A DNA stretch of 64,000 bases. Source: Minicystis rosea (GTDB lineage Bacteria; Myxococcota_A; Polyangia; Polyangiales; Polyangiaceae). Below the pieces are notes generated by a model. It ran no database searches, was not told the origin of the DNA, and saw nothing but the letters and a program-made list of their open reading frames with translations. The position numbers and the translations under genes were made by a program. How positions within the stretch are numbered: position 1 is the first letter of the stretch; the number at the start of each line of letters is the position of its first letter. The stretch lies in the NCBI GenBank assembly GCA_001931535.1, contig CP016211.1, positions 4,311,573 to 4,375,572 on the forward strand. The letters are read 5' to 3'. Positions 2,633 through 53,519 of this stretch are shown here, one piece after another.

Positions 2633-2979
2633 CCGCATAAGGTGCCCCCGCGCGGGCCGCGAAACCCGCGGACTTTTGCCGCCATGCCTCTCTCGTCCCG
2701 AGCACGCCGCCACGCTTCGCGCCGGTGTGGCGGCGCACCGCGAAGCCGCGATGTCCGATGTTGCCGCGCGCAGCTCGATCGTCGCGAGGATCGTTTGCTG
2801 GTAGGACGGCAGACGCGGGGCGGTCGTCGCGATCTCCATCGCCTTCGCGGACGGTGCGAGCACCGCGCTTCGCCGGAGGGCGGCGCGACGAGGGAGACGC
2901 GATCCTCCGCATGGAAAGTCTTTTTCGCGACGACGGCGCGAGCCGTGGCGGGGCAGCCCCCGCGAGATCGAGGAGCAAC

Positions 2980-4341: not shown

Positions 4342-4485
4342 GCGAAAGCGAAGGCCGCCCGCATCACGCGGCGGCCACCTCACGGAGGGCCCGGCGCGCC
4401 CGCGAGCATCTGCGGCGCGCCGGGAGCCTCCCGGCTCGACACCGAAACAGGGCCGCGGTAGTGCCGCGGTAGCGAGGTATTCCCC

Positions 4486-4989
4486 ATGGGAAAGTTCACC
4501 GTCACCCACGAGATCCACTGCGACGTCGACACGTTCTGGAAGACGTTCCTCGACAAGGAATTCAACACGAAGCTCTACGTGGACGCCCTCGGCTTCCCGG
4601 AGTTCAAGGTCGTCGACCAGTTCGAGGACGACACCCGCGCGTCGCGCAAGGTCAGCGCGCAGCCCAAGATGGAAGTGCCGGCCGCGGTGCAGAAGCTCTT
4701 CGGATCTGGCTTCCGCTACACGGAAGAGGGCTCGATGACCAAGCCGGAGCGCGTCTGGCGGTGGAAGATGACGCCCAGCACGATGGCGGACAAGCTCTTC
4801 ACGGGCGGCCTCATCCGCGTGGAGCGCATCGACGACAACCGCAGCCGCCGCATCGCCGAGATGTCGATCGAAGCGAAGATCTTCGGCGTCGGTGGGCTCA
4901 TCGAGTCCTCGGCGGAGAAGCAGCTCCGCGACGGTTGGGACAAGAGCGCGGTGTACATGAACAAGTACCTGCAGTCGCTCGCCAAGTGA
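4486..4989 (+). CDS. DUF2505-like (SRPBCC-fold) hypothetical protein
   Basis: 167 aa. MGKFTVTHEIHCDVDTFWKTF... and the C-terminal IFGVGGLIESSAEKQLRDGWDKS pattern match the DUF2505 family layout. Confidence 0.7.
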   Translation: MGKFTVTHEIHCDVDTFWKTFLDKEFNTKLYVDALGFPEFKVVDQFEDDTRASRKVSAQPKMEVPAAVQKLFGSGFRYTEEGSMTKPERVWRWKMTPSTMADKLFTGGLIRVERIDDNRSRRIAEMSIEAKIFGVGGLIESSAEKQLRDGWDKSAVYMNKYLQSLAK

Positions 4990-5137
4990 GGCGCACGCGC
5001 GGGGCCGGTGACACCGGCCCCTCCCCGCTCCAGCACGGCATTGCCGCCGGCCGCTGCCTCCCCTAGAGCGGCGGGGCGAGCGCGATCCTCGGCCCGGCCC
5101 ACGGCGCCGCTCGGCGTCGCCCTCGTGAGGGGTTTCC

Positions 5138-6469: not shown

Positions 6470-6692
6470 CGAGGCGAGCAACTCCCTTCGATGTCACCAG
6501 GCACCGCGAAGACTGCCTGGACACGCCTTCGGTGGAACAGCTCCCCCACAACCGTGCCAAGGCAAGCCACGGTGACGCCGGGGCAGAGCGGTGAGGCGCC
6601 GAGGCAGAGCGTGGCGATGCGAAGGTAGGTCCTCTCCCCAGGCGCGAGGGGAGCGTGCTTCCATGACGCTGGGGGCATGCGAGAGGGCGACC

Positions 6693-8861: not shown

Positions 8862-8984
8862 AGAAGCGTCGACGCATCTCCATCTCACTCACGAAGCTCC
8901 GCTCGGTAGCATCCACCTTCCCGCAACCCGCGCTCGACGACGTGGACACGCTGCGCCCACGAGCAGCGGGGCTCCATCCGCGCA

Positions 8985-11900
8985 TCAAGCAGCGTTCACC
9001 GTCTCTTGGCGCTTGGGGCCGGCGCAGGGGAGCTCGACGACGAACGAGGAGCCGGAGCCGATGGTGCTGACGGCGCGCACGGAGCCGCCCAACGCGCCGA
9101 CGATCTCGCGGACGATGTAGAGGCCGAGACCGAGGCCGCCGTAGTGCTCGACGGAGACGCCGCGCTCGAAGCGGTCGAAGATGCGCGAGAGCTGCGCGGG
9201 GTCGATGCCGATGCCTTGATCTTCGACGACGAGGCGCGCGGTGCCGGCGTGGGCGTCGACGGTGACGGCGATGGGCTTGCCCTTGCCGAACTTGGCGGCG
9301 TTGGTGAGCAGGTTGGTCGCGACTTGAACGAGGCGCGCGCGATCCCAGAGGCCGGTGACGGGAACGTCGGCGTGCAGCGAGATGGTGCAGCGGGCTCGTT
9401 CGAGATCCGAGCTGAGCCGATCGATGGCGTCGCGGGCGACGCGCGAGAGGTCGACGGGCTCCACGTCGAGCTCCAGGCGGCCTTCGCGGATGCGGGAGAT
9501 GTCGAGCATCTCGCCGACGAGCGTGGCGAGGCGCAGGCCCTGGCGCTCGACGAGGAGGAGCGCGCGGTTGAGGCGCTCGGACGGCGGAGAGATCTTGGAT
9601 CGTGAGAGCGCCTGCACGGCGAGCTGGAGCGAGGTGATGGGCGTGTTGAGCTCGTGCGAGGCGACGGCGACGAAGTCCTCGCGGAGGCGGATGGCCTCCT
9701 GCGCTTGCTGGTAGAGGCGCGCGTTGTCGATGGAGAACGCGGCGCGGCGAGCGAGCTCCTCGGCGAGCGCGACCTCGGTGGGGCCGTAGGTGAGACGGGT
9801 CGAGGCGGTGAAGAAGGTCATCGCGCCGAGGCTGCGATCGCGCGCGATGAGCGGGACGGCGATGAGCGATCGGCTCCCGAGGGCGCGGATGAGCTCGATG
9901 TGGCGCGTGTCCGTGCTGATGGCGGCGAGCAAGGCGTCGCTGAGATCGGCGCAGAGGTACGGGGCGCCGGTGCGGATGGCGACGGCCGCGGGGATGCCGG
10001 ACTCGGGGCGCGGCGGGTAGCGCTCGCAGAGCTCGCGGAGGAGAGGATCCTTCACGGGATCGAAGTGCGCGGCGGCGACGCGCTCCAAGGTGGCGGCCCG
10101 ATCGAAGACGTCGACGACGCACCAGTCGGCGAGGTACGGGACGGCGAGGCGCGCGACCTTGACCAGCGTGGCTTCGTAGTCGAGCGACTCCGAGAGGAGC
10201 GCGCTCGCCTCCGCGAGGAAGCGGAGGGCCTGCTCGGCGCGGGCGCGCTCGCCGATTTCGATCTTGAGCTTCTCGAAGAGGAGGCTGTTGTCGAGGGAGA
10301 CGGCGATCTCCGAGGAGAGCAGCTCGACCACGCGCACGCGGCAGGTGGTGAACGCGCGCGTCGTCAGATCGTTCTCCAGGTAGAGCACGCCGGCCGTGCG
10401 CGCCTGCTTGCGGATGGGGACGGCGAGCACGGAGCGAACGGCGCGCGCTGCGATGTGTGGGTCTCCGGTGAAGCGGCCCTGATGGGCGGCGTCCGCGAGG
10501 ACGACGGAGTCCCCGGTGCGAAAGACATCCTCGATGAGGGTACACGGGAGCTCTCCGGCCGCGGCGAGCGGGGTGGGCGCGACGCTCACGGCCTCGGAGA
10601 CGACGCCCACCGCGCGCACGACACGCGCGCCCTCTTCGTCGAGGATCAAGGCGCCGCGCTGCGCGCCCGCCGCTTCGAGGCACACCGTCATGAGCTTCTC
10701 GAGCAGGCGATCGAGCACGACCTCGCTGGAGAGCGTTTCGGCGGCCTTGAGCAGGCTGATGACGTCGAGCGCCGCGCCGGCGGTCTCGTCGACGATGGGC
10801 CCGGGTGAGGAAGCGGCCTGCGCGGCGAGGAGGCCGCGAAACTCTTCTTCGAGCGCCTCGGCCTTGGCGTTCGCGCCCCAGCGCGCATAGCTCTGGACGG
10901 CGGCTTGGAGATGATACGCCGCGGTGGTGCGCCGGCCGCGCGCGTGCAGGCAACGGCCGGCGAGCTCGCGGGAGAGCGCCTCGTCTTGGAGGAAGCGCTC
11001 GCGGCACGCGCCGTCGATGGCCTGCTCGTAGAGATCGAGCTGCTCGTCGAGCGTGCCGCCGGTGATGCGCGCGAGCTCGGCCGAGACGAGCAGGTGCTTG
11101 TGCCGGTAGCTCTCGGGACAGCGGAGCGCCCAGCGCGCGAGACGCCGCTGGTTCTCGGTGATCGCGGCGACGAGACGCTCGCGCTCCTCGGGCGCGGCGA
11201 AGGCGCAGCTCGCGGCGAGCGCGAGCGACGTGTAGACGTTGTAGTCCACGACGACGATGGTGCCGCGCACGGCCGCGAGGTGCGCGGTCGCGGCGGCCGA
11301 CATGGCCCGCGCGCCGGCGAGATCGCCGAGGAGATAGCGCGCTTGCAAGGCCAGGGTCTCGTACCGACAAACGAGCGCGGGCTTGGTGCGCCGGGCCTCG
11401 TCGAGGAAGCCACACGTGTCGAACTCGTCGTCGTCGAAGGTCAGGCCGCGCGTTCGTCCTTGGAGGCAGCGGACCGCTTGACGTTGCAGGTAGAACGCCA
11501 TGAGCGCGCTGTGGTTCTCGAGCTTGCGCGCGAAGCCGATGGAGTCCTCGATGTCGGCGAGCACCTGATCGAGCTCGGCGCCCATGGCGAAGCGGTGCGG
11601 GACTGCGTACTCGCGCGCGAAGGCGGCGTACTCGAGATCCCCGCACGCGAGCGACGCTTCGAGGGCCCGGCGAAAGTGGTGGAGGGTCGCGCGGAGCGGG
11701 CCGTGCCAGTGGCTCATGAGGAACGAGAAGCCGAACTGCGCGCGGCACTCGTGGCGGAGCGTGCCGTGACGGCGCGCGAGATCGAGGCCGATGCGGCTCA
11801 GCCAATAGCCCGCGGTGAAGTCGTCATGCGTGTCGCCGAGGACCATCCCGAAGCGGGTGAACGCGCCGCCCGACTCGGGCGCCATGCCATGACGGAGCGA

Positions 11901-14687
11901 GAGGCCGACCATGCGCGTCACCACGAACGAGAACAGCCCCGTGCAGACGGCGAGCCACGTGACCGCGGTGAGGTTCGAGAGGATGCGCATGCAGGCGAGG
12001 ACGTCGGGCTCGTGCATGGCCGGCGCGGCGAGGAGATCCTCTTCGGTGAGGTTCTGGAGGAGGCCCTGGATCTCGACGAGCTCGGTGCGCGCGACGATCG
12101 CGGCTTCGCCTTCGTCGGGGAGCACCAGACCGAAGCGCGCGAGCGCCTCGCGCGCCCAGCCGATCGCCCCGGCGCTGTCCTGCGCCACGGTGCTCGTGAT
12201 GATGCGCTGGCAATCCATGTCGACGCGATCGACGGCGGTCGGAGCGAGCGCGATGGCCTCGTCGATGCGCGCGATCGCGCCGGCAAAATCGCCGGTGAGA
12301 TACGCGTCCTCCGCGGCCTCGCGCGTGAGGGCATAGCGCAGCGTCTGGTGCGATCCACCCACCTCGGCCGGAAGCAGCGCGAGCCCCCGCGTCGCGTAGC
12401 GCAGCGCCTGACCGAACGCCGAGGCTCCCCTCGCCTTCACGGCCGCGCGCAGCATGAGCTCGGCCACCCGGGTGCGATCGGGCTCGTCGTGCAGGAGATC
12501 CGCGCCGCGATCGAGCTGATCGACCGCCGCGAAGAGGTGCTCTTCGATCTCGCGCTCCCCACCTTCGAGCAGCAGAAAGCCGGCCCGGAGGTGGAGCTGC
12601 TGCTGCTCCTCGGCGGAGAGCAGCGAGTAGGCGGCCTGCTGCACGCGATCGTGCACGAACCGATAGACGGCGCCCGGCGCGACGGCCGCCTCACCGCCCG
12701 CGTCGTCCAACGACGCGGAGGTCAGCGACGAAGGATCGGGGACGAGCAGCCCCTCGCGGAGCGCGCTCCACAGCTCGTTGGAGACGGCGGCGACGGGCGC
12801 GCGATCGATGGCGGCGAGCAGGCCGATCTCGATCTTGCCGGGCAGACACGACGCGACCATGAGCACGCGCTGGGTGCGCTTCGGCAGCCGGCGGATGGTG
12901 GTGCCCATCAGCTCGAGCACGTTCTCGGTCACGTCCGCGGCGACGGCGCGGCGCGCGTCCCAGATCCACGCGCCGCGCTCGCGATCGAAGGCGATGAGCC
13001 CCGATCGATGGAGATGCCGCAGGAAGCGCTCGACGAAGAACGGGTTGCCCGCCGTCTTCTGCTGCACGATCGCGGCGAGCGGCCGAGCCCGGTCGGGCGA
13101 GCAGCGCAGGACGTCGGCGCAAAGCAGGGTGAGCGCGTCGAGATCGAGCGGCGCGAGGGGCACGCTCTGCACCGCGATCCCCGCGCGCCGGATGGTGTCG
13201 AGCGTGCGCGTGAGCGGGTGCTCCTCGGTGACCTCGTCGGATCGGTAGGAGCCGACGATCAGCACGTGGCGCACCTCGGGGCCGGCCAGCGCGCGGAGGA
13301 GCCGGAGCGACGCGGCGTCGGCCCACTGGAGATCGTCGAGGAACAAGACGAGCGGGCTCCCCTTCGCCGCGAGGGCTTGGACGATCGGATGAATCATCAG
13401 CGCGAGGCGGCTCATCTCGGCGCCCGCCGCGGCGCCTTCGTAGCCGAGCAGCTCGGCGAGCTCGGGCACCAGCGCGGCGGCGATGGGGACCACGCCGCGA
13501 AGGGCCTCGCCGATGCGCCCTCGCCACACGTCCACGACCGCTTTCGGCTCGCGCAAGAGGCGCCGCACGAGATCGCGCGTGGCCTCGACGACGGCCCCGT
13601 GAGGGATGTTGCGGCGCAGCTCGTCGAACTTGACCGAGAGGCAGCGCGCGCCGTGCGCCGAAGGTGACGCGAGCGCGCCGCGCACCAGCGTCGACTTGCC
13701 CACGCCCGCGCTCCCGGTCACGAGGAACAGCTCGATCGCGCCGGCGGCCGCGCGCGAGAGCGCCTCGGCGAGCGCGCTCGTCTCGCGATCGCGCCCGCGG
13801 ATCGTGCCGGGAATGACGAGCTCGCGCTCCCGATCGAGCCGGCCCAGATCGAAAGGATCGATCGCGCCGCTCGCGCGGTGGCGGCGCTCGATCTCGCGCA
13901 GATCCGCGGCCAGCGCTTCGGCGCTCTGGTAGCGCTGCTCGGGCATCTTCGCGAGCAGCTTGAGCACGAGCTCGCCGAGGATGGGCGGCACCGCCCGGTT
14001 GGTGTCGGTCGGCGGCGCCGGCGCGCGCGCCAGGTGCGCGTGCACGAGCTCGGCCGGATCGCTCGCCGAGAACGGCGGGCGCCCGGTGATCATCTCGTAG
14101 AACGTCGCGCCCAACGAGTAGAGGTCGGCGCGGTGATCGACGAGCCGGCTGATGCGACCCGTCTGCTCGGGCGCGATCGCGCGCAACGTGCCCTCGAACT
14201 CCGCGGCCGCGCCCTGCGCGCCGGACGCGCTCGTGGCCAGGCCGAAGTCGATCACCGTGAAGCGATCGCCGTCCTCGCTGACCACGATGTTGGTCGCGTT
14301 GAGATCGCGGTGGATGATGTTCTCGCGGTGGATCCCCGCGATGGTGTCGGCGAGCTGGATGGCGCGCGCGAGGAAGGCGGAGACCCCCAACGGGCGGCGC
14401 CGCAGCCAATCCTTGAGGTTGTGCGAACCGGCGTCCTCGAGGACGAGCGCCGCGACGCCCTCCACCTCGACGCGCCCGAACGATCGAACCACGCCGGGCA
14501 CGGAGGCGAGCGCCTCGATCATCTCCTGCTCGTGATCGAGCAACGCCGCGCTCTGCGCCGCGCGGCGCCCCGAGCGCACGAGCTTGAGGATGCGCGGCGC
14601 GCCGTCGGCATCCGTCACCCGAGCCACGGAGTAGCGACGCCCGCGGTGGATCTCCTGCTGCTCGACGTACGGACCACCCTGGCTCAT
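8985..14687 (-). CDS. multidomain sensor: Hanks-type Ser/Thr protein kinase + AAA/STAND-like P-loop ATPase + TPR-like helical repeats + two GAF domains + histidine kinase (HisKA/HATPase_c), about 1900 aa
   Basis: N-terminus has HRDLNATNIVV and DFGLA kinase motifs. A Walker A (LVTGSAGVGKST) follows, then a long helical repeat region. GAF-like segments come next, then REDFVAVASHELNTPITS (H-box) and a C-terminal DxGxG/GLGLGL ATP-binding box. Start at the ATG at 14687; the ORF opens at 14798. Confidence 0.85.
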   Translation of the reverse strand: MSQGGPYVEQQEIHRGRRYSVARVTDADGAPRILKLVRSGRRAAQSAALLDHEQEMIEALASVPGVVRSFGRVEVEGVAALVLEDAGSHNLKDWLRRRPLGVSAFLARAIQLADTIAGIHRENIIHRDLNATNIVVSEDGDRFTVIDFGLATSASGAQGAAAEFEGTLRAIAPEQTGRISRLVDHRADLYSLGATFYEMITGRPPFSASDPAELVHAHLARAPAPPTDTNRAVPPILGELVLKLLAKMPEQRYQSAEALAADLREIERRHRASGAIDPFDLGRLDRERELVIPGTIRGRDRETSALAEALSRAAAGAIELFLVTGSAGVGKSTLVRGALASPSAHGARCLSVKFDELRRNIPHGAVVEATRDLVRRLLREPKAVVDVWRGRIGEALRGVVPIAAALVPELAELLGYEGAAAGAEMSRLALMIHPIVQALAAKGSPLVLFLDDLQWADAASLRLLRALAGPEVRHVLIVGSYRSDEVTEEHPLTRTLDTIRRAGIAVQSVPLAPLDLDALTLLCADVLRCSPDRARPLAAIVQQKTAGNPFFVERFLRHLHRSGLIAFDRERGAWIWDARRAVAADVTENVLELMGTTIRRLPKRTQRVLMVASCLPGKIEIGLLAAIDRAPVAAVSNELWSALREGLLVPDPSSLTSASLDDAGGEAAVAPGAVYRFVHDRVQQAAYSLLSAEEQQQLHLRAGFLLLEGGEREIEEHLFAAVDQLDRGADLLHDEPDRTRVAELMLRAAVKARGASAFGQALRYATRGLALLPAEVGGSHQTLRYALTREAAEDAYLTGDFAGAIARIDEAIALAPTAVDRVDMDCQRIITSTVAQDSAGAIGWAREALARFGLVLPDEGEAAIVARTELVEIQGLLQNLTEEDLLAAPAMHEPDVLACMRILSNLTAVTWLAVCTGLFSFVVTRMVGLSLRHGMAPESGGAFTRFGMVLGDTHDDFTAGYWLSRIGLDLARRHGTLRHECRAQFGFSFLMSHWHGPLRATLHHFRRALEASLACGDLEYAAFAREYAVPHRFAMGAELDQVLADIEDSIGFARKLENHSALMAFYLQRQAVRCLQGRTRGLTFDDDEFDTCGFLDEARRTKPALVCRYETLALQARYLLGDLAGARAMSAAATAHLAAVRGTIVVVDYNVYTSLALAASCAFAAPEERERLVAAITENQRRLARWALRCPESYRHKHLLVSAELARITGGTLDEQLDLYEQAIDGACRERFLQDEALSRELAGRCLHARGRRTTAAYHLQAAVQSYARWGANAKAEALEEEFRGLLAAQAASSPGPIVDETAGAALDVISLLKAAETLSSEVVLDRLLEKLMTVCLEAAGAQRGALILDEEGARVVRAVGVVSEAVSVAPTPLAAAGELPCTLIEDVFRTGDSVVLADAAHQGRFTGDPHIAARAVRSVLAVPIRKQARTAGVLYLENDLTTRAFTTCRVRVVELLSSEIAVSLDNSLLFEKLKIEIGERARAEQALRFLAEASALLSESLDYEATLVKVARLAVPYLADWCVVDVFDRAATLERVAAAHFDPVKDPLLRELCERYPPRPESGIPAAVAIRTGAPYLCADLSDALLAAISTDTRHIELIRALGSRSLIAVPLIARDRSLGAMTFFTASTRLTYGPTEVALAEELARRAAFSIDNARLYQQAQEAIRLREDFVAVASHELNTPITSLQLAVQALSRSKISPPSERLNRALLLVERQGLRLATLVGEMLDISRIREGRLELDVEPVDLSRVARDAIDRLSSDLERARCTISLHADVPVTGLWDRARLVQVATNLLTNAAKFGKGKPIAVTVDAHAGTARLVVEDQGIGIDPAQLSRIFDRFERGVSVEHYGGLGLGLYIVREIVGALGGSVRAVSTIGSGSSFVVELPCAGPKRQETVNAA

Positions 14688-43816: not shown

Positions 43817-45217
43817 TCAGGGCGTCGTGTCGACGCGCTCGAAATCGAGATCGATCGGCGCCGCGGCGTCCGGCCGCGCGGCCTTCGGGGGCACGGCGCG
43901 CGAGGGATCGGTGACGGGCACGCTCGCGTCGACCTCCTCGAAGGTCACGTCATCGAGCCAGAGGCGCCCGGGGCCGTCGATGCCGCTGCCGATCTGCACC
44001 CACGCGGCCTCGCGGGGCACGTCGAACACCACCGAGCAAGGCAGCCAGTCGAAGGTGCCGCGGAGCGCGCAGCGCCCGCCGCCGAGACCGGGCCCGTCGG
44101 CCGGCGAGCCCGCGGCCTGCACGCGCATCCACACGTCGCCGCGCGCGGTCACGCCCTCGCCCTTCGACCACGCGGTCACGCGGAGCCGCTTGCCGCGGTA
44201 GAGCGCCGCATCGACGCCTTGGAGAAGGGTCCCGTAGCCCTTCGGTTGGACGCCGGCCTTGGGCGCGAGCCGAACGCTCGCCGCCCCGCCATGCCGCTCG
44301 CCGCGATCGATGACGGCCTCGTAGGACGCGTGGGCGAAGCCCGAGATCATCCAGCCCGAAGGCGTGTCGCCCGCGCGCTCGAAGTCGCCGTTCTCCAGCG
44401 TGCTCGGCGTCGGCTTCCAGACCGCGAGCGGCGTCGCGGCGTCGACGGGCTCGAGCGTGACGTCGTCGACCCAGGCGGTGCCCGGACCGCCGAGGCCGAG
44501 GCCGAGCTCGATCGCATCGGCGCGCGCGCCCACGTCGAGGACCATTTCGCACATGCGGTACGCGAAGGTCCCGGAGAGCTTGCACGCGCCGTAGCCGAGG
44601 CCGGGCCCGTCGCCGGGCGAGTCGGCGGCTTGCACGCGCGCCCAGAAATCACCACGTCCCGTGATGCTCTCGCCCCGGACCCACGCGCGCAGGCGGAGGC
44701 GCTGGCCGCGCACGTGCTCGGCCCGCATCGCGTGCATGAGCACGCCGTAGCCCTTCGGCGCAGGGACGATCGCCGTGATTCGCGCGCTCGCGGCGCCGCC
44801 GTGCGGCGCGACCCGATCGATCGAAGGGGCGAACTGCTCGCGCGCGCCGCCCGACATGAACCAGCCGGCCTGGCCGAGATCGCCGCGCTCGAAGCCGCCG
44901 TCGGCGAGCGTCACCGGCCTCGCGTCCGCCGTGGTCACGGGGACGTCATCGGCGACGGGCTCGAAGCGCGCGTCGTCGATCCACGTGCGCCCCGGGCCGT
45001 CCTGCAGGATCCCGAGGCGGATCGAGGTCGCGTCCTCGGGCACGGCGAGCACCACGGCGTGCTCGGCCCAGGCATGCGTCCCCCGAAGGGGACGCGCCTG
45101 CATGTTGTCGAACGGCGCGCGGCCGTGCATGCGATCGACGCGCATGAAGAGCCCGTGAAGCCGCGGACGTCGTCGGTCTTCACGAACGCGGAGAAGCGCA
45201 CCTTGCGCCCGCGCCAC
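43817..45217 (-). CDS. C-terminal part of an anti-sigma factor: three-plus copies of a roughly 150-aa extracytoplasmic repeat module; reads as a continuation of the 45180..45992 gene after two frame changes
   Basis: Repeated motif GW...HGGAAS.RL...KGYG...RGKRLR..AW.KGE..T.RGD.W.RVQAA.SP.DGPGLG.G.C.L.GTF.W..C..V.DVP..A.W.......DGPG..W.DDVT.EPVD. Stop lies 16 nt upstream of the beta-lactamase-family gene start. Confidence 0.6.
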   Translation of the reverse strand: MARAQGALLRVREDRRRPRLHGLFMRVDRMHGRAPFDNMQARPLRGTHAWAEHAVVLAVPEDATSIRLGILQDGPGRTWIDDARFEPVADDVPVTTADARPVTLADGGFERGDLGQAGWFMSGGAREQFAPSIDRVAPHGGAASARITAIVPAPKGYGVLMHAMRAEHVRGQRLRLRAWVRGESITGRGDFWARVQAADSPGDGPGLGYGACKLSGTFAYRMCEMVLDVGARADAIELGLGLGGPGTAWVDDVTLEPVDAATPLAVWKPTPSTLENGDFERAGDTPSGWMISGFAHASYEAVIDRGERHGGAASVRLAPKAGVQPKGYGTLLQGVDAALYRGKRLRVTAWSKGEGVTARGDVWMRVQAAGSPADGPGLGGGRCALRGTFDWLPCSVVFDVPREAAWVQIGSGIDGPGRLWLDDVTFEEVDASVPVTDPSRAVPPKAARPDAAAPIDLDFERVDTTP

Positions 45218-45992
45218 GCCTCAGCGCCGAACACCTGCTGCACCACGCCTGCGCCCTCGGGCGCCGCGGCCTGCGACGAGAGCAGCGCGCTCGCCGCGCC
45301 GCCGTGGCGCTCGTGATCATCGCGCGCGAGCGTGTACGCCTGCGCCTCGGGCCCGACCAGCGACCAGCCGATCGCGCTCGGCCCTCGAAGCGAGGCGCGC
45401 CCGCGCGCGACGGATACGCGACGAAGAGACCGTGCCGGTGCGCGCGCGCGACGCATCCTTCCTGCGCGGGTCCATCGGGGCAGACCGCATTCGGGATCGG
45501 CCCGCTCGCCTCCGCCGACGGCGCCCGATGCACGAACGCCGCCCACACCGCGGCCGCCGCCGCCACCAGCGGCAACAGGCGCACGAACCGCAGCGGCTGC
45601 AGGCCCGGCCGCGCGCCTCCCGCGCGCGCTGCAACATTCGGCGCCACGGTCTCCACAATGCGATTCGCATCCGAGCGCGCCGCCGTGCTCGACGCCGCCA
45701 CCTCCGCGATAGCGGCAACCTCGGTGCCCGATGCCGGCATCGCCGCGGCATCAGCGCTCTCCGCGCGCACCGCCGCGCCCGACACCTCCATTGCCTCCGC
45801 TCGGGCCACGTCGGCGAGCGCGAGCTCGAGCGTCGCCTCGCGCGCGAGCCGCGACGTGCATGCATCGCAGCGCGCGACGTGCGCCTCGAAGGCAAGCGCT
45901 TCGGCCGGCGAGGCCGCGCCCATCACGAAGTCGGCGAACGCCTGCTCGGGCAGGTGCTCGTCGGGTGCCGGCCCGTTCCTGTGCTCACTCAT
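45180..45992 (-). CDS. anti-sigma factor N-terminal region (zinc-finger HxxxCxxC + TM helix); its downstream sequence is frameshifted into the 43817..45217 ORF
   Basis: MSEHRNGPAPDEHLPEQAFADFVMGAASPAEALAFEAHVARCDACTSRL (ChrR/RsrA-like zinc-binding anti-sigma N-domain). TM helix LRFVRLLPLVAAAAAVWAAFV. Start overlaps the sigma-factor stop (ATGA). Confidence 0.65.
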   Translation of the reverse strand: MSEHRNGPAPDEHLPEQAFADFVMGAASPAEALAFEAHVARCDACTSRLAREATLELALADVARAEAMEVSGAAVRAESADAAAMPASGTEVAAIAEVAASSTAARSDANRIVETVAPNVAARAGGARPGLQPLRFVRLLPLVAAAAAVWAAFVHRAPSAEASGPIPNAVCPDGPAQEGCVARAHRHGLFVAYPSRAGAPRFEGRARSAGRWSGPRRRRTRSRAMITSATAARRARCSRRRPRRPRAQAWCSRCSALRRGAGARCASPRS

Positions 45993-46587
45993 CGGAGCCC
46001 TCCAGCGCGCGGCGGAGCCGGCCCCGCACCTCGCACAGCGTCTGCCGCACGCGCTGAACGCTGAGGCCGAGCTTTTCGGCGGCCTCCGCGTGCGGCGCGT
46101 CCGGATCCTCGTAGACCGCTTGGAACACCCGGCGCGCCGCGGGCGAGCAGCGCGCGAGCTCCATCCGCGCCCGCTCGAGCTGCTCGCGCGCCACCATCGT
46201 CGTCTCGGCGTCCGCCGTCCGGTCCGCGATCGCCGCGAGCCGTCCGTCGTCCTCCACCGGCGTCTCCGTGTGCCTTCGCCGCGCGTCCTCGCGCGCGAAG
46301 AACGCCGCCTGGGCCACCGCCAGCCCCGGCAGCTCCAGCCGTTCGAGCTTCCCCGCGCGCTGCTGCTCGATGAGCCGCGCCCACGTCTCCTGCGCGATCT
46401 CGCGCGCCCGATCGATGCGCACCCCGCGCGCGAGCAGCGACAGCACGACCCGCCGATCGTGCCGCGCGATCAGCTCCTCCCATCCGCGCCGCTCCCCCGC
46501 GAGCGCGAGCGCGGCCGCCGCATGGCTGCCACGCGACGCGTCCTCAGCGTCCGGCAAGATGTCCCCCCACGCGGGAGCCGCGATCAT
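45985..46587 (-). CDS. ECF RNA polymerase sigma factor
   Basis: Region 2 (VLSLLARGVRIDRAREIAQETWARL) and region 4 HTH (EAAEKLGLSVQRVRQTLCEVRGRLRRAL). Coupled to the downstream anti-sigma gene. Confidence 0.85.
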   Translation of the reverse strand: MIAAPAWGDILPDAEDASRGSHAAAALALAGERRGWEELIARHDRRVVLSLLARGVRIDRAREIAQETWARLIEQQRAGKLERLELPGLAVAQAAFFAREDARRRHTETPVEDDGRLAAIADRTADAETTMVAREQLERARMELARCSPAARRVFQAVYEDPDAPHAEAAEKLGLSVQRVRQTLCEVRGRLRRALEGSDE

Positions 46588-46731: not shown

Positions 46732-48342
46732 TCAGAAGCCCGGGACGATCCGCCCGAGGCGCCGCAGGAGCGCCTCCACGGGTGCCCACGCCGCGGCCTC
46801 CTTCGCGGTGGGATCACGCTCGATCTCGAGCGCCAGCCGGTGGAGGTGCCCCGCCAGCGCGCGCTCGGCGTCGCTGAGCGCGCCGTCGTAGCGCGCGTCG
46901 AGGAGGTGCTCCGTGGTCCCGCTCTGCGCGAGCACCGCGTCGAGGAAGATGGCGAGCCGGCGCGCGCTCGCCGCCCACGCGGCACGCCCGCCGCCCTGGG
47001 GCGGCGCGTTGGGATCCATCGTCACCCAGCCGAGATCCGTCCCCCACAAGGCCTGCGCCATCGGATCCGAGAAGAGCTCGAGCGCGGTGCCGAAGCGATC
47101 GCCGTCGACCGTCGGATCGCCGGGCTTCCGCCACGGCGTCCGCGCGCGCCGCACGGCGTCCGCGATGCGATGGAAGTTGTCGTCCTTGAGCGAGAACCCG
47201 ATGAACAGCATGTGCCGCGTCATCAGGAGCGCTTGCACGATGCCGGCGAGCGCCTGCCGCCGCTGGTCGTAACGGAGATAGTCCTCGCGCGTGAGCACGA
47301 TGTGATCGGGATCGGTCACGCACCCGTGCATCTTGAGAAGCCAGCGCCCGCGCCCGGCGATGGGCGCGTGCGGGAGGATGGCGAGCTCCTTCCCGATCGC
47401 GCGCGACGCCCGCTCGAAGAGCTCGTCGTAGTTGGTGGTCACGACCTCGCCGACCGGCAGCGCCGCGAGCAGCGCGTGCGCCATCGGCACCTCGATGCGC
47501 TCCGCGAACGCCTTGGCGATGGCCTGCCCGAGGTGCCGCCCTTCGGCCGGCGCGCGCCGCTCGAGGTGCATCTCCACGATGCGCGCCCGATCGAGCACGT
47601 GGAGCCGCGCGAGCCCCGCGATCTCCGCGTCGCCCATGCCCGCCTCCACCGCCAATTCGCTGAGCAGCGCCTCCCACCCCGGGAGCCCCGCGCCCATGCT
47701 CACGCCCGCGCCGAGGAACAGCGTGAGCCCGCCGCCCCGCGCCATCGCCGCGAGGCGCCCGCTCTCGGCCCAGAGCGTGTCGTCGAGCTCGGGCCACGCG
47801 CTCCGCGCCGCGCCTCGCTGCGCCTCCGCGGCCGCGAACGTCAGCGCCTCGTTGGTGACGAGCGCGATGTCGACGTCGAGCCTCTCCGCCTGCCGCCGCA
47901 GCACGGGGATGAGCTCGCGCACGATCTCGCCCGCCCGCCTGCGCGCGCCGCCGTGCCCGGTGCCCACCACGGGCAGCGCGAGCAACCGCTTCGCCCGATC
48001 GTGGCGCGGCGGCCGCCCACTCTTCGCGAGATCGTCGACGGCCCGCTCCAGGAACTCGACGGCGCCGCCGACGTACCACCCGGCCCCCGTCGTCGACGGC
48101 GCCCCCACGTTCACGAGCCACGGCCGCGGCAGATCGTCGGGCCACGCATCGACGCGCATCGCCCGCTGCTGCCCGGCGCGCCACTCCACCGTGTGCCGCG
48201 GCCAGCGCGGCGTCCCAACGCGCGCGCCGAGCGCCGCGAGCCACCGCCGCCCCGGCTGCGCGCGCATGTCGCAGGGCAGGAGCCACGCGTCGCACGCGAG
48301 CTGCGTGAGGTCACCGTGCACGATGAAGACGTGGCCGCTCAC
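46732..48342 (-). CDS. two-domain protein: N-terminal macro-like domain fused to a C-terminal SIR2_2 (defence-associated sirtuin-like, ThsA-type) domain
   Basis: C-terminal SIR2_2 motifs: LTLFLGAGVSMGAGLPGWEALL, VVTTNYDELFERA, LLKMHGCVTDPDHIVLTREDYLRY, FIGFSLKDDNF. N-terminal roughly 190 aa has HVFIVHGDLTQLACDAWLLPCD and LPVVGTGHGGARRRAGEIVRELIPVL, resembling macro-domain GDIT...DAIVNAAN and the P-loop-like Gly-rich segment. GTG start. Confidence 0.75.
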   Translation of the reverse strand: MSGHVFIVHGDLTQLACDAWLLPCDMRAQPGRRWLAALGARVGTPRWPRHTVEWRAGQQRAMRVDAWPDDLPRPWLVNVGAPSTTGAGWYVGGAVEFLERAVDDLAKSGRPPRHDRAKRLLALPVVGTGHGGARRRAGEIVRELIPVLRRQAERLDVDIALVTNEALTFAAAEAQRGAARSAWPELDDTLWAESGRLAAMARGGGLTLFLGAGVSMGAGLPGWEALLSELAVEAGMGDAEIAGLARLHVLDRARIVEMHLERRAPAEGRHLGQAIAKAFAERIEVPMAHALLAALPVGEVVTTNYDELFERASRAIGKELAILPHAPIAGRGRWLLKMHGCVTDPDHIVLTREDYLRYDQRRQALAGIVQALLMTRHMLFIGFSLKDDNFHRIADAVRRARTPWRKPGDPTVDGDRFGTALELFSDPMAQALWGTDLGWVTMDPNAPPQGGGRAAWAASARRLAIFLDAVLAQSGTTEHLLDARYDGALSDAERALAGHLHRLALEIERDPTAKEAAAWAPVEALLRRLGRIVPGF

Positions 48343-48780
48343 GGAGCCAGACTAATGCGAGGAGCAGGCGCCCCGCACGGTGAGAAGAGGCAACCGAGGG
48401 CGCGACGACGTGACGATGCGGAAAGGCAGGCCGCGTAGGCATCCCGCCGCGGTGCTTGGAGTCACCTCGCCGCACTGCGCGCTCCCGCTCGTGGACGCAC
48501 GCGGGCAAGCGACCGCCGGCCCGCGCGCCAGCCTCTCGTCAAAAGGAGCACTGCGTCTGCATCGCCGAGCCTTCGTTTCACCCTCGACGGCTCTCCGGAA
48601 AGGCGTCCGGGCTCCGCGCATCGCGCCCCGAGCGCTCGCCATGTCTGGGCTCCGGCCGGCAGCGCCACCGACGGAGCCGTGACGCCGGCCGCGCCGTGCG
48701 CCGCTCGCGCCGAGGCATCACCCGTGCGCAGCGGCAAACAACGCGCCCTCCCAGAGCAGCCCACCCCGACCTGTGCTCCC

Positions 48781-49181
48781 CGAGCCACTTCCCTCGTCGT
48801 AAATCCCCGATCCTGCGCGCCCGCCACCACTTCCACCGTCGTAAGCGCCCAATCCCCTGCTCCCGCGACCACTTCCACCGTCGTAAGCGCCCAATCCCCT
48901 GCTCCCGCGACCACTTCCACCGTCGTAAACGCCCAATCCCCCGCTCCTCGGGCCGCTGCCCTCGTTGGAAGTCCGCGCGCCTCGACTCCTGCAGCGACTT
49001 CCAACGTCGCAAGTGCCGATTCGCGTGCTCGCCCAAACCCTTCCATCGTTGAACGTGCCGATCCCTCAGCGCTCTCGCCGACTTTCACCGTTGTAGGCGC
49101 CGACACCCGCGCTCCTCCGAGCACTTCCATCGTTGGAAGCGCTCGCGCCTCGACACATCGACCAACGCACCTCGTCCGACG
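48781..49181. repeat. about 9.5 tandem copies of a degenerate 42-bp unit (consensus cgcccaatcccctgctcccgcgaccacttccaccgtcgtaag), a minisatellite
   Basis: Unit boundaries at 48804, 48846, 48888, 48930, 48972, 49014, 49056, 49098, 49140. Units diverge progressively and there are no unique spacers. Open in 5 of 6 frames because 42 = 14 codons. Confidence 0.75.
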
Positions 49182-49577
49182 CGCCCGATCTCTCGCGAAG
49201 GCAGCGCCGAGCACCGGCGCAGGTCGCCGGCGGCGTGCCCTGCATGCAACCTCCCACCATGGGAACATCGCCCGAGCGGCATCCGCACGCGATGCGCTGC
49301 GCGGTCGTGGGCCGGCTCGCGCGCGCGGTGCGGGTTCCATCGCCGCGCGCCGTGTGATCCGCTACGACCGCGGGAGCACCGGCCTCGGACTTCGTCGCCG
49401 GGGCCCGCATCGTCGCTCCATGCTTCACGTACCTGCCCTGCTCCCTGCCCTTGCGCCCGGTCACGGCGTGCTCGCCTTCGCACGGCGCGAGGAGCGCACC
49501 GTTCTCGTCGGTGTGCGCGCCGCGAGCCCGCTCAAGATCCTCACGCCCAAGAACCACGGTCACGGCGCGTGGGCGAT
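48841..49577. repeat. copy 1 of a 737-bp perfect tandem duplication (copy 2 = 49578..50314)
   Basis: Six-frame ORFs 48462..49340 vs 49541..50077, 49133..49357 vs 49870..50094, and 49085..49483 vs 49822..50220 translate identically, with a constant +737 offset. Junction is gggcgat|gtaagc at 49577/49578. Confidence 0.75.
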
Positions 49578-49581
49578 GTAA
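49420..49581 (+). pseudogene. ureD: truncated duplicate of the ureD 5' end (53 codons), terminated at the duplication junction
   Basis: [52 protein letters not shown], then M and a stop. Identical to the N-terminus of the intact ureD in copy 2. Confidence 0.5.
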
Positions 49582-50314
49582 GCGCCCAATCCCCTGCTCC
49601 CGCGACCACTTCCACCGTCGTAAGCGCCCAATCCCCTGCTCCCGCGACCACTTCCACCGTCGTAAACGCCCAATCCCCCGCTCCTCGGGCCGCTGCCCTC
49701 GTTGGAAGTCCGCGCGCCTCGACTCCTGCAGCGACTTCCAACGTCGCAAGTGCCGATTCGCGTGCTCGCCCAAACCCTTCCATCGTTGAACGTGCCGATC
49801 CCTCAGCGCTCTCGCCGACTTTCACCGTTGTAGGCGCCGACACCCGCGCTCCTCCGAGCACTTCCATCGTTGGAAGCGCTCGCGCCTCGACACATCGACC
49901 AACGCACCTCGTCCGACGCGCCCGATCTCTCGCGAAGGCAGCGCCGAGCACCGGCGCAGGTCGCCGGCGGCGTGCCCTGCATGCAACCTCCCACCATGGG
50001 AACATCGCCCGAGCGGCATCCGCACGCGATGCGCTGCGCGGTCGTGGGCCGGCTCGCGCGCGCGGTGCGGGTTCCATCGCCGCGCGCCGTGTGATCCGCT
50101 ACGACCGCGGGAGCACCGGCCTCGGACTTCGTCGCCGGGGCCCGCATCGTCGCTCCATGCTTCACGTACCTGCCCTGCTCCCTGCCCTTGCGCCCGGTCA
50201 CGGCGTGCTCGCCTTCGCACGGCGCGAGGAGCGCACCGTTCTCGTCGGTGTGCGCGCCGCGAGCCCGCTCAAGATCCTCACGCCCAAGAACCACGGTCAC
50301 GGCGCGTGGGCGAT
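49578..50314. repeat. copy 2 of the 737-bp tandem duplication (includes a second partial 42-bp array at 49578..49918 and the intact ureD start)
   Basis: See copy 1. Confidence 0.75.
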
Positions 50315-50987
50315 CGTGGCCACGTTCGGCGGTGGGCTCGTCGACGGCGACAGCATCCACCTCGACGTCGAGCTGGCGGAGGGCACGGCGGCGCTGCTCG
50401 GTACGCAGGCCTCGACCAAGGTCTATCGCTGCCCGACGAGCACGTGCCACCAAGCGCTCGACGCGCGGGTCGGCGAGGGCGCGCTCCTCGTGAGCGTCCC
50501 CGATCCGGTCGCGTGCTTCGCCACCGCGCGCTACGAGCAGGTGAACCGCGTCGCGCTGGCGAAGACGGCGTCACTCGTCCTCCTCGACACGTTCACGTCG
50601 GGCCGCGCCGCGCGCGGTGAGCGCTGGGATTTTCATCGCTACGCCGCGCGCACCCTCATCGACCGCGACGGCACGCCCTGGCTGCGCGACTCCATCGTCC
50701 TCGACCCCGAGCAAGGCGATCTCCACGCGCGCATGGGGCGCTTCGACGCGTATGCGACGCTCGTGATGGTGGGGCCGCGTGTCGCGCCCCTCGTCGAAGC
50801 GGCGCGGGTGTCTCCGGCGCCGGCACGGCGCGGCGGCATCGCGCACGCCGCGAGCGCGCTCGGCGACGATGGCATCGTGGTCCGCATCGCAGGCACGTCG
50901 GTCGAGGACGTGACGCGCGCCGCCCGCGGCGTTCTCGCTGGCCTCCCAAGCATTCTCGGAGACGATCCCTTCGCACGAAAGTGGTGA
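50157..50987 (+). CDS. ureD: urease accessory protein UreD (UreH)
   Basis: ...[26 protein letters not shown]...[39 protein letters not shown] matches the UreD family. Start taken at the ATG at 50157; the ORF is open from 49569 through the repeat array. Confidence 0.8.
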
Positions 50988-51024
50988 CTTCGTTGACGCG
51001 TCGCGACAGGATCCATCGCGGACG

Positions 51025-51807
51025 ATGCGACTATCACCACGCGAAGTCGACAAGCTCCTCCTCCACAACGCCGGCTTCCTCGCCCAGAAGCGGCTCGCGC
51101 GCGGGCTGCGCCTCAACCATCCGGAGGCGATCGCGCTCATCGCCACCCAGATCCTCGAGCTGATTCGCGACGGGCGGCGCGTCGCCGAGCTCATGGATCT
51201 CGGCCGGCGCATGCTCGGCCGCCGGCAGGTGATGAGCGGCGTCGCGGAGATGATTCACGAGGTCCAGGTCGAGGGCACCTTCCCCGACGGGACCAAGCTC
51301 GTGACCGTGCACGATCCCATCAGCGCCGAGGACGGCGATCTCGACCTCGCGCTCTACGGGAGCTTCCTCCCCGTGCCCTCGCTCGATCGCTTCGCCGCGC
51401 CCGAGCACGGGAAGCCGGTGGTGCCCGGCGAGCGCTTCATCGCGCCCGGTGAGATCGTGCTCAACGAGGGGCGCCGCGAGCTGTCGCTGACGGTGACGAA
51501 CCGCGGCGACCGTCCCATCCAGGTCGGGAGCCACTACCCGTTCACCGAGACCAACCGCGCCCTCGACTTCGATCGCGCGCAGGCGGCGGGCATGCGGCTC
51601 GACATTCCCGCGGGCGCGGCGGTGCGCTTCGAGCCGGGCGAGAGCAAGACCGTGCGCCTCATCGCGGTGTCGGGCAGGGCGTGGCGCGAGACGCCGGGCG
51701 ACGAGCGCGCCGAGCTGCTGGCGCACGCGGTCCCGCACGCGCTCGATGGGGGCGGCTACGCCGAGCGAGCGAGCGCCCCGACCCACCGCAAGGGAGGAGC
51801 CTCGTGA
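51025..51807 (+). CDS. ureAB: urease gamma/beta fused subunit
   Basis: N-terminus [39 protein letters not shown] (gamma, UreA). C-terminal half [43 protein letters not shown] (beta, UreB). Confidence 0.9.
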
Positions 51808-53519
51808 GCCATCGCATCCGACGCCAGCACTACGCCGACATGTACGGGCCCACCAAGGGCGACCGCGTGCGGCTCGGCGACACCGGCCTCATCCTCGAGA
51901 TCGAGCACGATCACACGACCTACGGCGACGAGTGCAAGTTCGGCGGCGGCAAGGTGCTCCGCGATCGCATGGGCCAGATGGGCGGGCTCGACGACAGCCG
52001 CGCGCTCGACGTGGTCATCACCAACGCGCTCGTGGTCGATTGGTCCGGCATCTACAAGGCCGACATCGGCATCAAGAACGGGCGCATCGTCGGCATCGGC
52101 AAGGCCGGCAACCCGGACGTGATGGGCGGCGTCTACTCGCGCATGCTGATCGGCGTGACCACGGAGGCCATCGCGGGCGAGGGCTTGATCCTCACCGCCG
52201 GCGGCGTCGACACGCACGTGCACTTCATCTGCCCGCAGCAGGCCTACGAGGCGATCGCCAGCGGCGTCACCACCTTCGTCGGCGGCGGCACCGGCCCCGC
52301 CACGGGCACGTGCGCCACCACGTGCACGCCCGGCGCGCGCCACATCGAGCTGATGCTCCAAGCCACCGACGCGCTGCCCATCAACATCGGCCTCACCGGC
52401 AAGGGCAACACCTCGATGTCGAACGGCCTCCGCGATCAGATCCGCGCGGGCGCCGTGGGCCTCAAGCTCCACGAGGATTGGGGCACCACGCCGGCCGCGA
52501 TCGACTGCTGCCTCGGCATCGCCGAGGAAGAGGACGTGCAGGTCACCATCCACACCGACACGCTCAACGAGTCGGGCTACGTGGACGACTCCATCGCCGC
52601 CTTCAAGGGCCGCACCATCCACACGTACCACACGGAGGGCGCCGGCGGCGGCCACGCGCCCGACATCATCCGCGTGTGCGGCGAGCCCAACGTCATCCCG
52701 AGCTCGACCAACCCCACGCGCCCGCACACGGTGAACACGCTCGACGAGCACCTCGACATGCTCATGGTGTGTCACCACCTCGATCGCGAGATCCCCGAGG
52801 ACGTGGCCTTCGCCGAGAGCCGCATCCGCGGCGAGACCATCGCCGCCGAGGACGTGCTCCACGATCTCGGCGCCATCAGCATCATCTCCAGCGACAGCCA
52901 GGCGATGGGCCGCGTCGGCGAGGTCATCACCCGCACGTGGCAGACCGCCGACAAGATGCGCGGGCAGCGCGGCCGCCTCGCCCTGGAGCGCGGCGACAAC
53001 GACAACCTCCGCATCCGCCGCTACATCGCGAAATACACGGTGAACCCCGCCGTCGCGCACGGGCTCTCGCACGAGATCGGCTCGATCGAGATCGGCAAGT
53101 GGGCCGACCTCGTGCTGTGGCGGCCGGACATGTTCGGCATCAAACCCGAGATGGTGCTGAAGGGCGGCTTCGTGGCCTGGTCGCAGATGGGCGACGCCAA
53201 CGCGTCCATCCCCACGCCCGAGCCCGTGATCATGCGGCCGATGTTCGGCGCGCTCGGCCGCGCCACCGGCGCGACCAGCATCGCCTTCGTGTCGCAGCGC
53301 GCGTTCGAGGAAGGGAACATCCGCGCCCTCGGGCTCGGCAAGCGGATCTCCCCCGTCTCGCGCTGCCGCGGCATCGGCAAGCGCGACATGCGTCTCAACG
53401 ACGCCTTGCCGAAGATCACGGTCGACCCGGAGACGTACGAGGTCCGCGCCGACGGCGAGCTGCTCCGGCACGAGCCCGTCGCCTTCCTCCCGCTCGCGCA
53501 ACGCTACAGCCTCTTCTGA
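51804..53519 (+). CDS. ureC: urease alpha subunit
   Basis: GTG start overlapping the ureAB stop (GTGA), with AGGGAGGAG upstream. [52 protein letters not shown] nickel-site motifs. Confidence 0.9.

Follow-up and report, generated by a model that had tools for sequence, protein, structure and literature searches.

The Minicystis rosea DNA analyzed here (64,000 nucleotides of contig CP016211.1, hereafter the window) contains a gene whose 536-amino-acid product joins an N-terminal macro domain to a SIR2_2 domain resembling those of ThsA, DSR, and KomC. Bacterial immunity relies on SIR2_2 NADases as central effectors, in Thoeris, DSR, SIR2-HerA, pAgo, and Kongming, and the class has human relatives, FAM118A and FAM118B. 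The protein, which we refer to as Macro-SIR2_2, represents a real, large, and uncharacterized family that is mechanistically suggestive and built from familiar parts. In the interpretation that we favor, with a probability of roughly 0.55, it is a ligand-gated, autoinhibited, ThsA-like NADase contained in a single polypeptide. The gene and the parts of its product are located in the window as follows.

46732..48342, minus strand: complete Macro-SIR2_2 gene, 536 amino acids; GTG start at 48342, stop codon at 46732-46734; identical to A7982_03723
47803..48342, minus strand: N-terminal macro-fold domain, amino acids 1–180, with a six-stranded β sheet and flanking helices; predicted ligand-binding (sensor) module
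48310..48312, minus strand: Asp11 of the GD[ILV]T motif, equivalent of the adenine-contacting Asp of macrodomains; invariant in 60/60 sequences
47947..47976, minus strand: LPVVGTGHGG (amino acids 123–132), equivalent of the diphosphate-binding loop 2 of macrodomains, by alignment and conservation
47734..47802, minus strand: linker between the macro and SIR2 domains, with conserved W183 and L186 and a helix at amino acids 188–202, by model secondary structure and conservation
46918..47733, minus strand: SIR2_2 (SIRim) Rossmann-type domain predicted to bind and cleave NAD+, ThsA-like, amino acids ~204–475, by Pfam, PADLOC, PDB, and Foldseek
47431..47433, minus strand: Asn304 (TTNYD), equivalent of catalytic N112 of Bacillus cereus ThsA, by HMMER alignment to 6lhx; codon checked
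47326..47328, minus strand: His339 (LKMHG), equivalent of catalytic H152 of B. cereus ThsA, by HMMER alignment to 6lhx
46735..46917, minus strand: conserved C-terminal helical extension, amino acids 476–536, by model and conservation

The open reading frame (ORF) is a genuine gene. At a G+C content of ~72%, the window holds long spurious ORFs in every frame, and we therefore used the G+C content of the three codon positions to pick out real genes. The values for this ORF (0.77/0.53/0.95) resemble those of the credible genes of the window, whereas long ORFs that overlap it in other frames are not coding-like by the same measure. The GTG start at 48342 fits the N-termini of homologues, which follow the pattern M-[SPA]-G-H-[VL]-F. 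A database entry of M. rosea annotated "Hypothetical protein" (A7982_03723; P0001 in our set) is 100% identical to the product. All eight motifs that a sequence-only reading of this DNA had quoted are found in the translation. Three lie in the macro part (GDLT, residues 10–13; DAWLLPCD, 18–25; LPVVGTGHGG, 123–132) and five in the SIR2 part (LFLGAGVS, 208–215; GLPGW, 219–223; TTNYD, 302–306; LKMHGCV, 336–342; FIGFSLKDDNF, 380–390).

Domains of the Macro-SIR2_2 protein

That reading had assigned the C-terminal part of the protein to SIR2_2, and the assignment stands. Pfam SIR2_2 (PF13289) matches residues 299–402 with an E value of 1e-27 and 97.4 bits, far above the gathering score of 24.5, and a precomputed PF13289 match is present in 120 of the 120 listed homologues. 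The ThsA1 models of PADLOC match residues 204–399 (E values of 1.8e-35 and 4.5e-25) over model positions 20–210 of 478 only. Weaker PADLOC matches to PDC-S25, the domain order of which differs from that of Macro-SIR2_2, to Dsr1/2, and to LmuA-SIR2 are all confined to the SIR2 core. In a sequence search of the PDB, the best matches were ThsA (6lhx, E value of 2e-16; 7uxt; 8bto), DSR2, and KomC. A Foldseek search of the PDB with the full-length model likewise returned filaments of B. cereus ThsA (8bto; E value of 2e-13), along with KomC and DSR2. TM-scores (template modeling scores) of ~0.70 were obtained to SIR2-only chains of KomC and DSR2 (271–285 residues), which indicates that residues ~204–475 form a complete NADase-type SIR2 domain.

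The residues required for catalysis in ThsA are retained. Asn304 and His339 are invariant in an alignment of 60 diverse homologues that extends down to 42% identity, and the K[ML]HG pattern that contains the histidine occurs in 60 of 60 sequences. The whole protein contains only three cysteines (residues 17, 24, and 341) and thus lacks the four-cysteine zinc module of deacylase sirtuins, an absence typical of the SIR2_2/SIRim class (PMC12700824; 10.1101/2024.09.18.613514). Judged by sequence and predicted structure, the domain is of the ThsA/DSR/KomC NADase type, as had been proposed, and not a canonical deacetylase sirtuin. From these features we infer that Macro-SIR2_2 has NAD+ glycohydrolase activity.

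The N-terminal domain was harder to place. Pfam searches with residues 1–204 found no family even at an E value of 10, and Macro (PF01661) was among the families left unmatched; the assignment therefore had to come from structure. In the model, the N-terminal domain adopts the three-layer α/β/α arrangement with a mixed six-stranded sheet that defines the macro fold, and a Foldseek search of viral predicted structures again returned macro domains. A single-sequence search yielded a weak match to macroH2A1.1 (E value of 0.057). With a profile built from 24 family members, macroH2A1.1 was matched at an E value of 0.0028, together with the macro protein TTHA0132, in alignments that span just two signature elements, "GDLT...CDA" and "ALPvvGTGxGG". 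On the combined basis of predicted structure and a weak profile match, we regard the macro fold of the N-terminal ~180 amino acids as secure. The earlier description of this region as macro-like thus holds for the fold and for the profile match to macroH2A1.1; it does not extend to a match with the Pfam Macro family.

Both signature elements correspond to ligand-contacting parts of macrodomains. Asp11 aligns with "GDLT" of macroH2A1.1 and "GDIT" of TTHA0132, and the GD[ILV] pattern is present in 59 of 60 homologues. Its counterpart in Af1521 is D20. In the loop-2 element, P124, G127, and G131 are invariant and G132 nearly so across the 60 homologues, with G[TI]xxGG in 59 of 60; LPVVGTGHGG aligns with "AFPLLGTGVGG" of TTHA0132. 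When the macro profile of the family was compared with Af1521 by hhalign, only the loop-2/β6 region aligned, at low probability, with LPVVGTGHGG opposite "AFPAVSAGIYG"; we take this solely as support for the equivalence of loop 2.

Catalytic macrodomains of the MacroD type carry a NAAN motif and a characteristic loop 1 (GGGxDx3H, HGGG, GxGxC, or the zinc loop Cx4HxC) (PMC11490716). Among 60 members of the Macro-SIR2_2 family, NAAN was found in 0, a glycine-rich catalytic loop 1 in 1, and Cx4HxC in 0. In place of loop 1, the family has a different, conserved element that includes P30 and W34. The closest relative by sequence, macroH2A1.1, is a non-catalytic binder. The simplest reading of these sequence features is that the macro domain is a ligand binder for a molecule with an adenine-diphosphate moiety, with altered specificity at the distal-ribose end. 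Five further invariant polar residues (H4, R60, R116, D158, and R176) have no assigned role.

The two domains appear to form one rigid body. An AlphaFold2 model of the full-length protein has a mean predicted local distance difference test score (pLDDT) of 93.3 and a predicted template modeling score (pTM) of 0.94, values that predict rigid packing of the macro domain against the SIR2 domain. In the C-terminal extension, the helices at residues 483–528 are modeled at a pLDDT of ~95, and L489, W519, and G530 are invariant. A Pfam search with residues 410–536 found no family at an E value of 10. The extension is possibly an oligomerization or regulatory surface. No transmembrane (TM) helices are predicted (the maximum Kyte-Doolittle mean over 19 residues is 1.51), and the macro domain starts at residue 1.

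A large family of stand-alone genes

Full-length homologues number at least 120; they are 505–565 amino acids long and cover 98–100% of the query, and the macro domain, the SIR2 domain, and the C-terminal helical extension are all conserved. A profile of the macro domain alone, searched exhaustively against 1.84 billion cluster representatives, matched 1,504 clusters (formed at 50% identity) at E values of 1e-3 or below and 1,120 at 1e-10 or below. The best 150 of these matches all have the Macro-SIR2 architecture or are fragments or tandem repeats of it. About 90 of the 150 are 480–650 amino acids long with an N-terminal macro domain, shorter ones look like fragments, and five measure 1,028–1,693 amino acids. 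No other effector domain is joined to this type of macro domain among the best 150, which suggests that the domain is dedicated to SIR2 and that the pairing is apparently obligate.

The five long proteins comprise two or three complete Macro-SIR2 units fused in tandem: P0122 (1693 amino acids), P0123 (1112), P0144 (1170), P0164 (1082), and P0179 (1028). For P0164, only one full-length match was obtained. Each fusion has one canonical unit that is 32–39% identical to the query. P0123, P0144, and P0179 contain a divergent but complete second unit with 24–27% identity, and further segments of P0122 are 27–29% identical. The second units lack TTNYD and K[ML]HG by strict pattern matching. This combination of canonical and divergent units is reminiscent of the pairing of active and auxiliary proteins in human FAM118A/B. 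The tandem fusions hint that the functional form of Macro-SIR2 is an oligomer.

The family is rare and patchily distributed. A scan of one genome per species identified at least 260 encoded relatives among 185,579 species. They occur in Myxococcota (Polyangium, Bradymonadia, and Sandaracinaceae), Planctomycetota (Gemmata and relatives), Rokubacteria, Chloroflexota, Gemmatimonadota, Acidobacteriota, Vulcanimicrobiota/Xenobia, and Actinomycetota (Actinomycetospora, Mycobacterium kyorinense, Nocardioides, and others). Identity to the Minicystis protein is higher in Rokubacteria (50–51%) than in Bradymonadia (38–45%). Identity thus does not follow taxonomy cleanly, which is consistent with some horizontal transfer.

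We compared the surroundings of the family in three ways: ORFs within 8 kb on either side of the gene were clustered all against all at 78 loci, eight contigs were inspected individually, and 260 neighboring proteins (110 immediate and 150 second or third neighbors) were scanned with Pfam and PADLOC. No partner gene is conserved across the 78 loci. Once antisense shadow ORFs are set aside, just two kinds of cluster recurred: Ser/Thr kinases, which occupy varying positions in 12 loci, and a patatin gene specific to Polyangium. The scans found 107 Pfam families among the immediate neighbors and 128 among the second and third neighbors, none of them in more than four proteins. The neighborhoods are mutually unrelated, each locus differing from the others; a consistent housekeeping setting, which the sequence-only reading had asked about, is not seen among them. 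Given that no neighbor is conserved, Macro-SIR2 is best described as a stand-alone gene. As a general description, half of a two-gene system, which had been suggested as one possibility, is rejected on the same ground.

Proposed mechanism and alternatives

In the model that we favor, Macro-SIR2_2 would be a soluble NAD+ glycohydrolase in which an N-terminal, non-catalytic macro domain restrains the SIR2_2 catalytic domain. The macro domain would bind a ligand that contains ADP-ribose (ADPR), be it free ADPR, a derivative, or an ADP-ribosylated macromolecule. Binding would alter the packing of the macro domain against the SIR2 domain and/or the oligomeric state and so switch on NAD+ hydrolysis, and the ensuing depletion of NAD+ would arrest growth. 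The ligand could be supplied by an unlinked host enzyme, by the NAD or ADP-ribose chemistry of an invader, or by the enzyme itself as its own product.

Several considerations lead to this model. A ThsA-like NADase that was always active would be toxic, and hence its activity must be restrained; apart from SIR2, the only conserved modules are the macro domain and the C-terminal helices. The scattered occurrence of the family and the differing neighborhoods of its loci give it an accessory character. The gene has neither ThsB/TIR nor any other fixed partner alongside it, which argues that the ligand must come from elsewhere. Two forms of ThsA provide precedents: 3' cyclic ADPR (3'cADPR) bound to the SLOG domain drives activation of ThsA from tetramers to filaments, and the Macro domain of type II ThsA binds ADPR or His-ADPR (PMC11204291; bioRxiv 10.1101/2024.01.03.573942; 10.64898/2025.12.03.692087). 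These precedents suggest that an ADP-ribose-type ligand on the macro domain would release or assemble the active NADase. Ligand gating, the identity of the ligand, and a role in conflict or defense are all inferred. A defense role for Macro-SIR2_2 is plausible, with weak support from genomic context; within the ligand-gated model, we consider an immune role the likelier one.

A number of observations weigh against this model. No linked partner gene that would produce a signal, such as TIR/ThsB or a cyclase, emerged from the 78 loci. PADLOC matches among the 260 neighbors are sporadic (McrBC twice, PDC-M61A/B, mad6, MkoA, SngA, and MzaA), several of them being generic matches to kinases or sigma-54 activators, and the defense-island context is accordingly weak. 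In the window, the gene is accompanied by a urease operon, a sigma-like gene, and a beta-lactamase-family gene. Full-length copies (at least 80% coverage) were found in none of 72,556 plasmids and none of 50,697 phages; these collections contain matches to the SIR2 core only, with coverage of 45% or less. Lastly, the conserved residues R60, R116, and D158 could form a non-canonical catalytic site in the macro domain.

The same context data give some weight to a second explanation, in which Macro-SIR2_2 is a physiological, non-immune regulator of NAD+ and ADP-ribose. On this view, soil bacteria with large genomes would carry it on the chromosome as an accessory enzyme that tunes NAD+ pools or induces dormancy according to the level of endogenous ADP-ribose, either as product feedback or in stress signaling. 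Neighboring genes are mostly metabolic, transport, or regulatory (major facilitator superfamily transporters, hydrolases, oxidoreductases, and response regulators), plasmids and phages lack full-length copies, synteny in five Polyangium genomes suggests vertical inheritance, and the window gene itself has a urease operon on one side and a sigma-factor gene on the other. However, a distribution as rare and patchy across phyla as that described above does not suit such a regulator, no conserved functional neighborhood points to a pathway, and the close relatives of the SIR2 domain that have been characterized are all immune NADases. We therefore judge this explanation unlikely, though it is the most serious of the rivals.

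A third explanation holds that the protein fuses a writer to an eraser: the SIR2 domain would ADP-ribosylate a protein or nucleic acid target and the fused macro domain would remove the mark, as in SirTM/Zn-Macro operons, in the fungal macrodomain-fused SirTM Mfs1, or in a fused version of a toxin-antitoxin pair resembling DarT/DarG. Pairings of sirtuin and macro domains that follow such logic are established (PMC11490716; PMC9503650), the rigid packing predicted by the pTM of 0.94 would suit hand-over of a substrate, and the conserved H4, R60, R116, D158, and R176 could form a non-canonical active site. Against it, the catalytic domain is SIR2_2 and ThsA-like rather than SirTM, and it keeps the catalytic histidine that is glutamine in SirTMs (PMC11490716). 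NAAN, the glycine-rich catalytic loop, Dx3H-type motifs, and the zinc loop occur in only 0–1 of 60 members, and the scanned loci contain no GcvH-L/LplA2 neighborhood. These features make a writer-eraser fusion quite improbable.

Most doubtful is a dispersed Thoeris-like effector that would serve as the receptor for an ADPR conjugate made by a TIR protein encoded elsewhere in the genome: at a distance of 3.1 kb from a 71%-identical homologue, the opposite strand encodes an 866-amino-acid TIR_2 protein, and Macro domains of type II Thoeris are receptors of TIR-made His-ADPR (10.64898/2025.12.03.692087), but no shared TIR cluster emerged from the 78 loci, TIR is absent from the families found in two or more of the 260 neighbors, and Thoeris is defined by the adjacency of thsA and thsB.

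The ligand-gated model can be taken further, at rather long odds, to a partner-less "ADP-ribose alarm": an immune NADase that senses conflict-specific, NAD-derived molecules through its macro domain, amplifies the collapse of NAD+, and is a possible source of the eukaryotic clade C discussed below. Its ligands may include ADPR released by other NADase defenses, TIR-made ADPR conjugates acting in trans, ADP-ribosylation by phage transferases, and intermediates of phage NAD reconstitution such as ADPR-PP. On this reading, the tandem two-unit fusions may resemble the hetero-pairing of the human SIR2_2 proteins FAM118A and FAM118B.

Macro-SIR2_2 unites a SIR2_2 NADase and a Macro receptor module in one soluble protein without a signal-making partner, and its clusters at 50% identity, which number over 1,000, lie in environmental phyla that are under-sampled by defense catalogs. 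Should the macro domain gate the NADase, knowing its ligand would reveal what a partner-less NADase senses and would put to the test whether different systems share NAD-derived signals in trans. The family would then also offer a tractable bacterial model for eukaryotic SIRim-Macro proteins. If the protein is a physiological NAD regulator instead, it would be a rare case of a ThsA-like SIR2 with a function outside immunity.

Relation to known systems and genomic context

By both sequence and structure, the SIR2 domain is closest to that of type I Thoeris ThsA (SIR2-SLOG; B. cereus MSX-D12, 6lhx and 8bto), with the same catalytic asparagine and histidine. The two proteins share a common logic, the fusion of a nucleotide-sensing domain to a SIR2 NADase, and differ in the sensor: a C-terminal SLOG domain in ThsA and an N-terminal macro domain in Macro-SIR2_2, which has no SLOG (the C-terminal 128 amino acids match no family). 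Macro-SIR2_2 has in addition the conserved C-terminal helical extension. Type I Thoeris also includes an adjacent thsB, whereas no thsB/TIR gene is found among the neighbors in the window.

The ThsA of type II Thoeris (TM-Macro; EcThsA of E. coli CFT073, 8v6q) has TM helices, which Macro-SIR2_2 lacks, as it lacks ThsB. The output of Macro-SIR2_2 is a SIR2 NADase domain, as opposed to a membrane-disrupting module in type II ThsA, and in structure EcThsA is a more distant match to its macro domain than are the MacroD, macroH2A, and PARP14 types. The logic of Macro-SIR2_2 thus combines the effector of type I Thoeris (SIR2) with a sensor like that of type II Thoeris (Macro), without ThsB. Membership in Thoeris itself was considered and rejected: the protein lacks both SLOG and the TM-Macro architecture, and ThsB is missing.

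SirTM/Zn-Macro systems and the fused fungal Mfs1 (8rsn) have glutamine in place of the catalytic histidine, act purely as ADP-ribosyltransferases, and employ a zinc-dependent macro partner with NAAN and Cx4HxC (PMC11490716). Macro-SIR2_2 keeps the histidine, has a PF13289 domain, and lacks NAAN and Cx4HxC. With DSR1, DSR2, and KomC of Kongming it has the SIR2_2 NADase core in common, and like DSR1 and DSR2 it has no dedicated signaling partner gene; KomC works in the multi-gene KomABC complex. However, DSR1 and DSR2 are ~1,000–1,250 amino acids long and possess large C-terminal protein-sensing domains, and neither they nor KomC contain a macro domain. NCBIfam has no dedicated family for Macro-SIR2_2, which scores 38.9 bits with Dsr2 and 34.5 bits with Dsr1 against cut-offs of 1,400; a dedicated model is likewise lacking from PADLOC 2023 and NCBIfam 2026.

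Clade C of the eukaryotic SIRim proteins has the same two-domain combination of SIRim and Macro (bioRxiv 10.1101/2024.09.18.613514). The reported position of this clade is beside the ThsA-like sirims of prokaryotes (bioRxiv 10.1101/2024.09.18.613514; PMC12700824 Extended Data Fig. 2), and some SIR2_2 members of a sirtuin tree bear the label "Macro" (PMC12700824). In both cases the architecture alone is noted, in eukaryotes or on single leaves of the tree, and we found no characterization of any of these proteins. The literature on Macro-SIR2 and SIR2-Macro fusions yielded SirTM-type pairings and passing mentions only; we found neither a characterized bacterial Macro-SIR2_2 protein nor a listing of one as a defense system. 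The combination had not been recognized as a described system in the sequence-only reading, which is correct with respect to characterization; the architecture itself has been mentioned (10.1101/2024.09.18.613514; PMC12700824).

The surroundings of the gene in the window comprise the following features.

50100-53519, plus strand: urease operon, divergent from the Macro-SIR2_2 gene and beyond a stretch of repeats
~50100-50987, plus strand: UreD/UreH-like coding region
51025-51807, plus strand: fused urease gamma-beta subunit gene
ending at 53519, plus strand: urease alpha subunit
45985-46587, minus strand: sigma-70/extracytoplasmic function (ECF)-like gene, 200 amino acids, 144 bp downstream of the Macro-SIR2_2 gene
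43817-45217, minus strand: 466-amino-acid protein following the sigma-like gene; no family in Pfam, NCBIfam, or PADLOC

As previously noted from the sequence, a region of repeats and duplication (48.7–50.2 kb) adjoins the gene on one side and a sigma-70/ECF-like gene lies directly downstream. The upstream interval (48343-50190) includes ~1.7 kb that is apparently non-coding, none of its frames being coding-like. Within it are tandem repeats of 42 bp at 48774-48947 (4.1 copies) and 49578-49684 (2.5 copies), as well as an exact direct duplication of 610 bp (48841-49450 = 49578-50187) whose second copy enters the start of the UreD-like coding region. Rfam identified no RNA family between 45.9 and 50.3 kb. 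The sigma-like protein falls below the ECF thresholds of NCBIfam and Pfam (sigma70-ECF, 38.3 bits versus 42.9; region 4 only in Pfam). The 466-amino-acid protein is possibly its anti-sigma partner, and the beta-lactamase-family gene lies downstream, past this protein. PADLOC matched none of the window neighbors, and homologues of these neighbors were not found beside any other family member.

Elsewhere in the family, synteny of the Macro-SIR2 gene is stable in five genomes of Polyangium. An apparent operon (positions 4108-11905 of locus L006 in Polyangium sp. 15x6; also L001, L011, and L030) places a membrane-anchored, patatin-like phospholipase of 727–779 amino acids directly after the Macro-SIR2 gene, with an overlap or a 12-bp gap. 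At three loci, which represent two genomes (L006 and L030 are on the same contig), the Macro-SIR2 gene is preceded, with a 4-bp overlap, by a gene for a 1,298-amino-acid Ser/Thr kinase-AAA_16 protein. The patatin has an N-terminal multi-pass membrane region and no relatives in the PDB, and thus shows no sign of reading a signal made by SIR2. The operon could be a lineage-specific, multi-effector conflict module.

Three unrelated metagenome-assembled genomes (from Burkholderiales, Xenobia, and Vulcanimicrobiota) carry a gene for a 301-amino-acid protein with DAGK_cat and YegS_C domains directly upstream of the Macro-SIR2 gene, with a 9-nucleotide overlap (L031, 712-1614; L041, 1638-2540; L048, 7087-7992). 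This lipid or small-molecule kinase of the NAD-kinase fold may be a subfamily-specific partner. The 866-amino-acid TIR_2 protein noted above is encoded on the minus strand at 2300-4900 of a soil metagenome contig (L002), upstream of the 71%-identical homologue; it is the only TIR neighbor in the gene tables that we inspected individually, and TIR did not recur in the neighbor scans. Finally, genes for DUF2779, WYL/WCX, and DnaB_C/AAA_25 proteins adjoin the homologue P0116 (L004, 6711-11303), a setting that resembles a mobile element or defense island, in contrast to the mostly metabolic contexts elsewhere.

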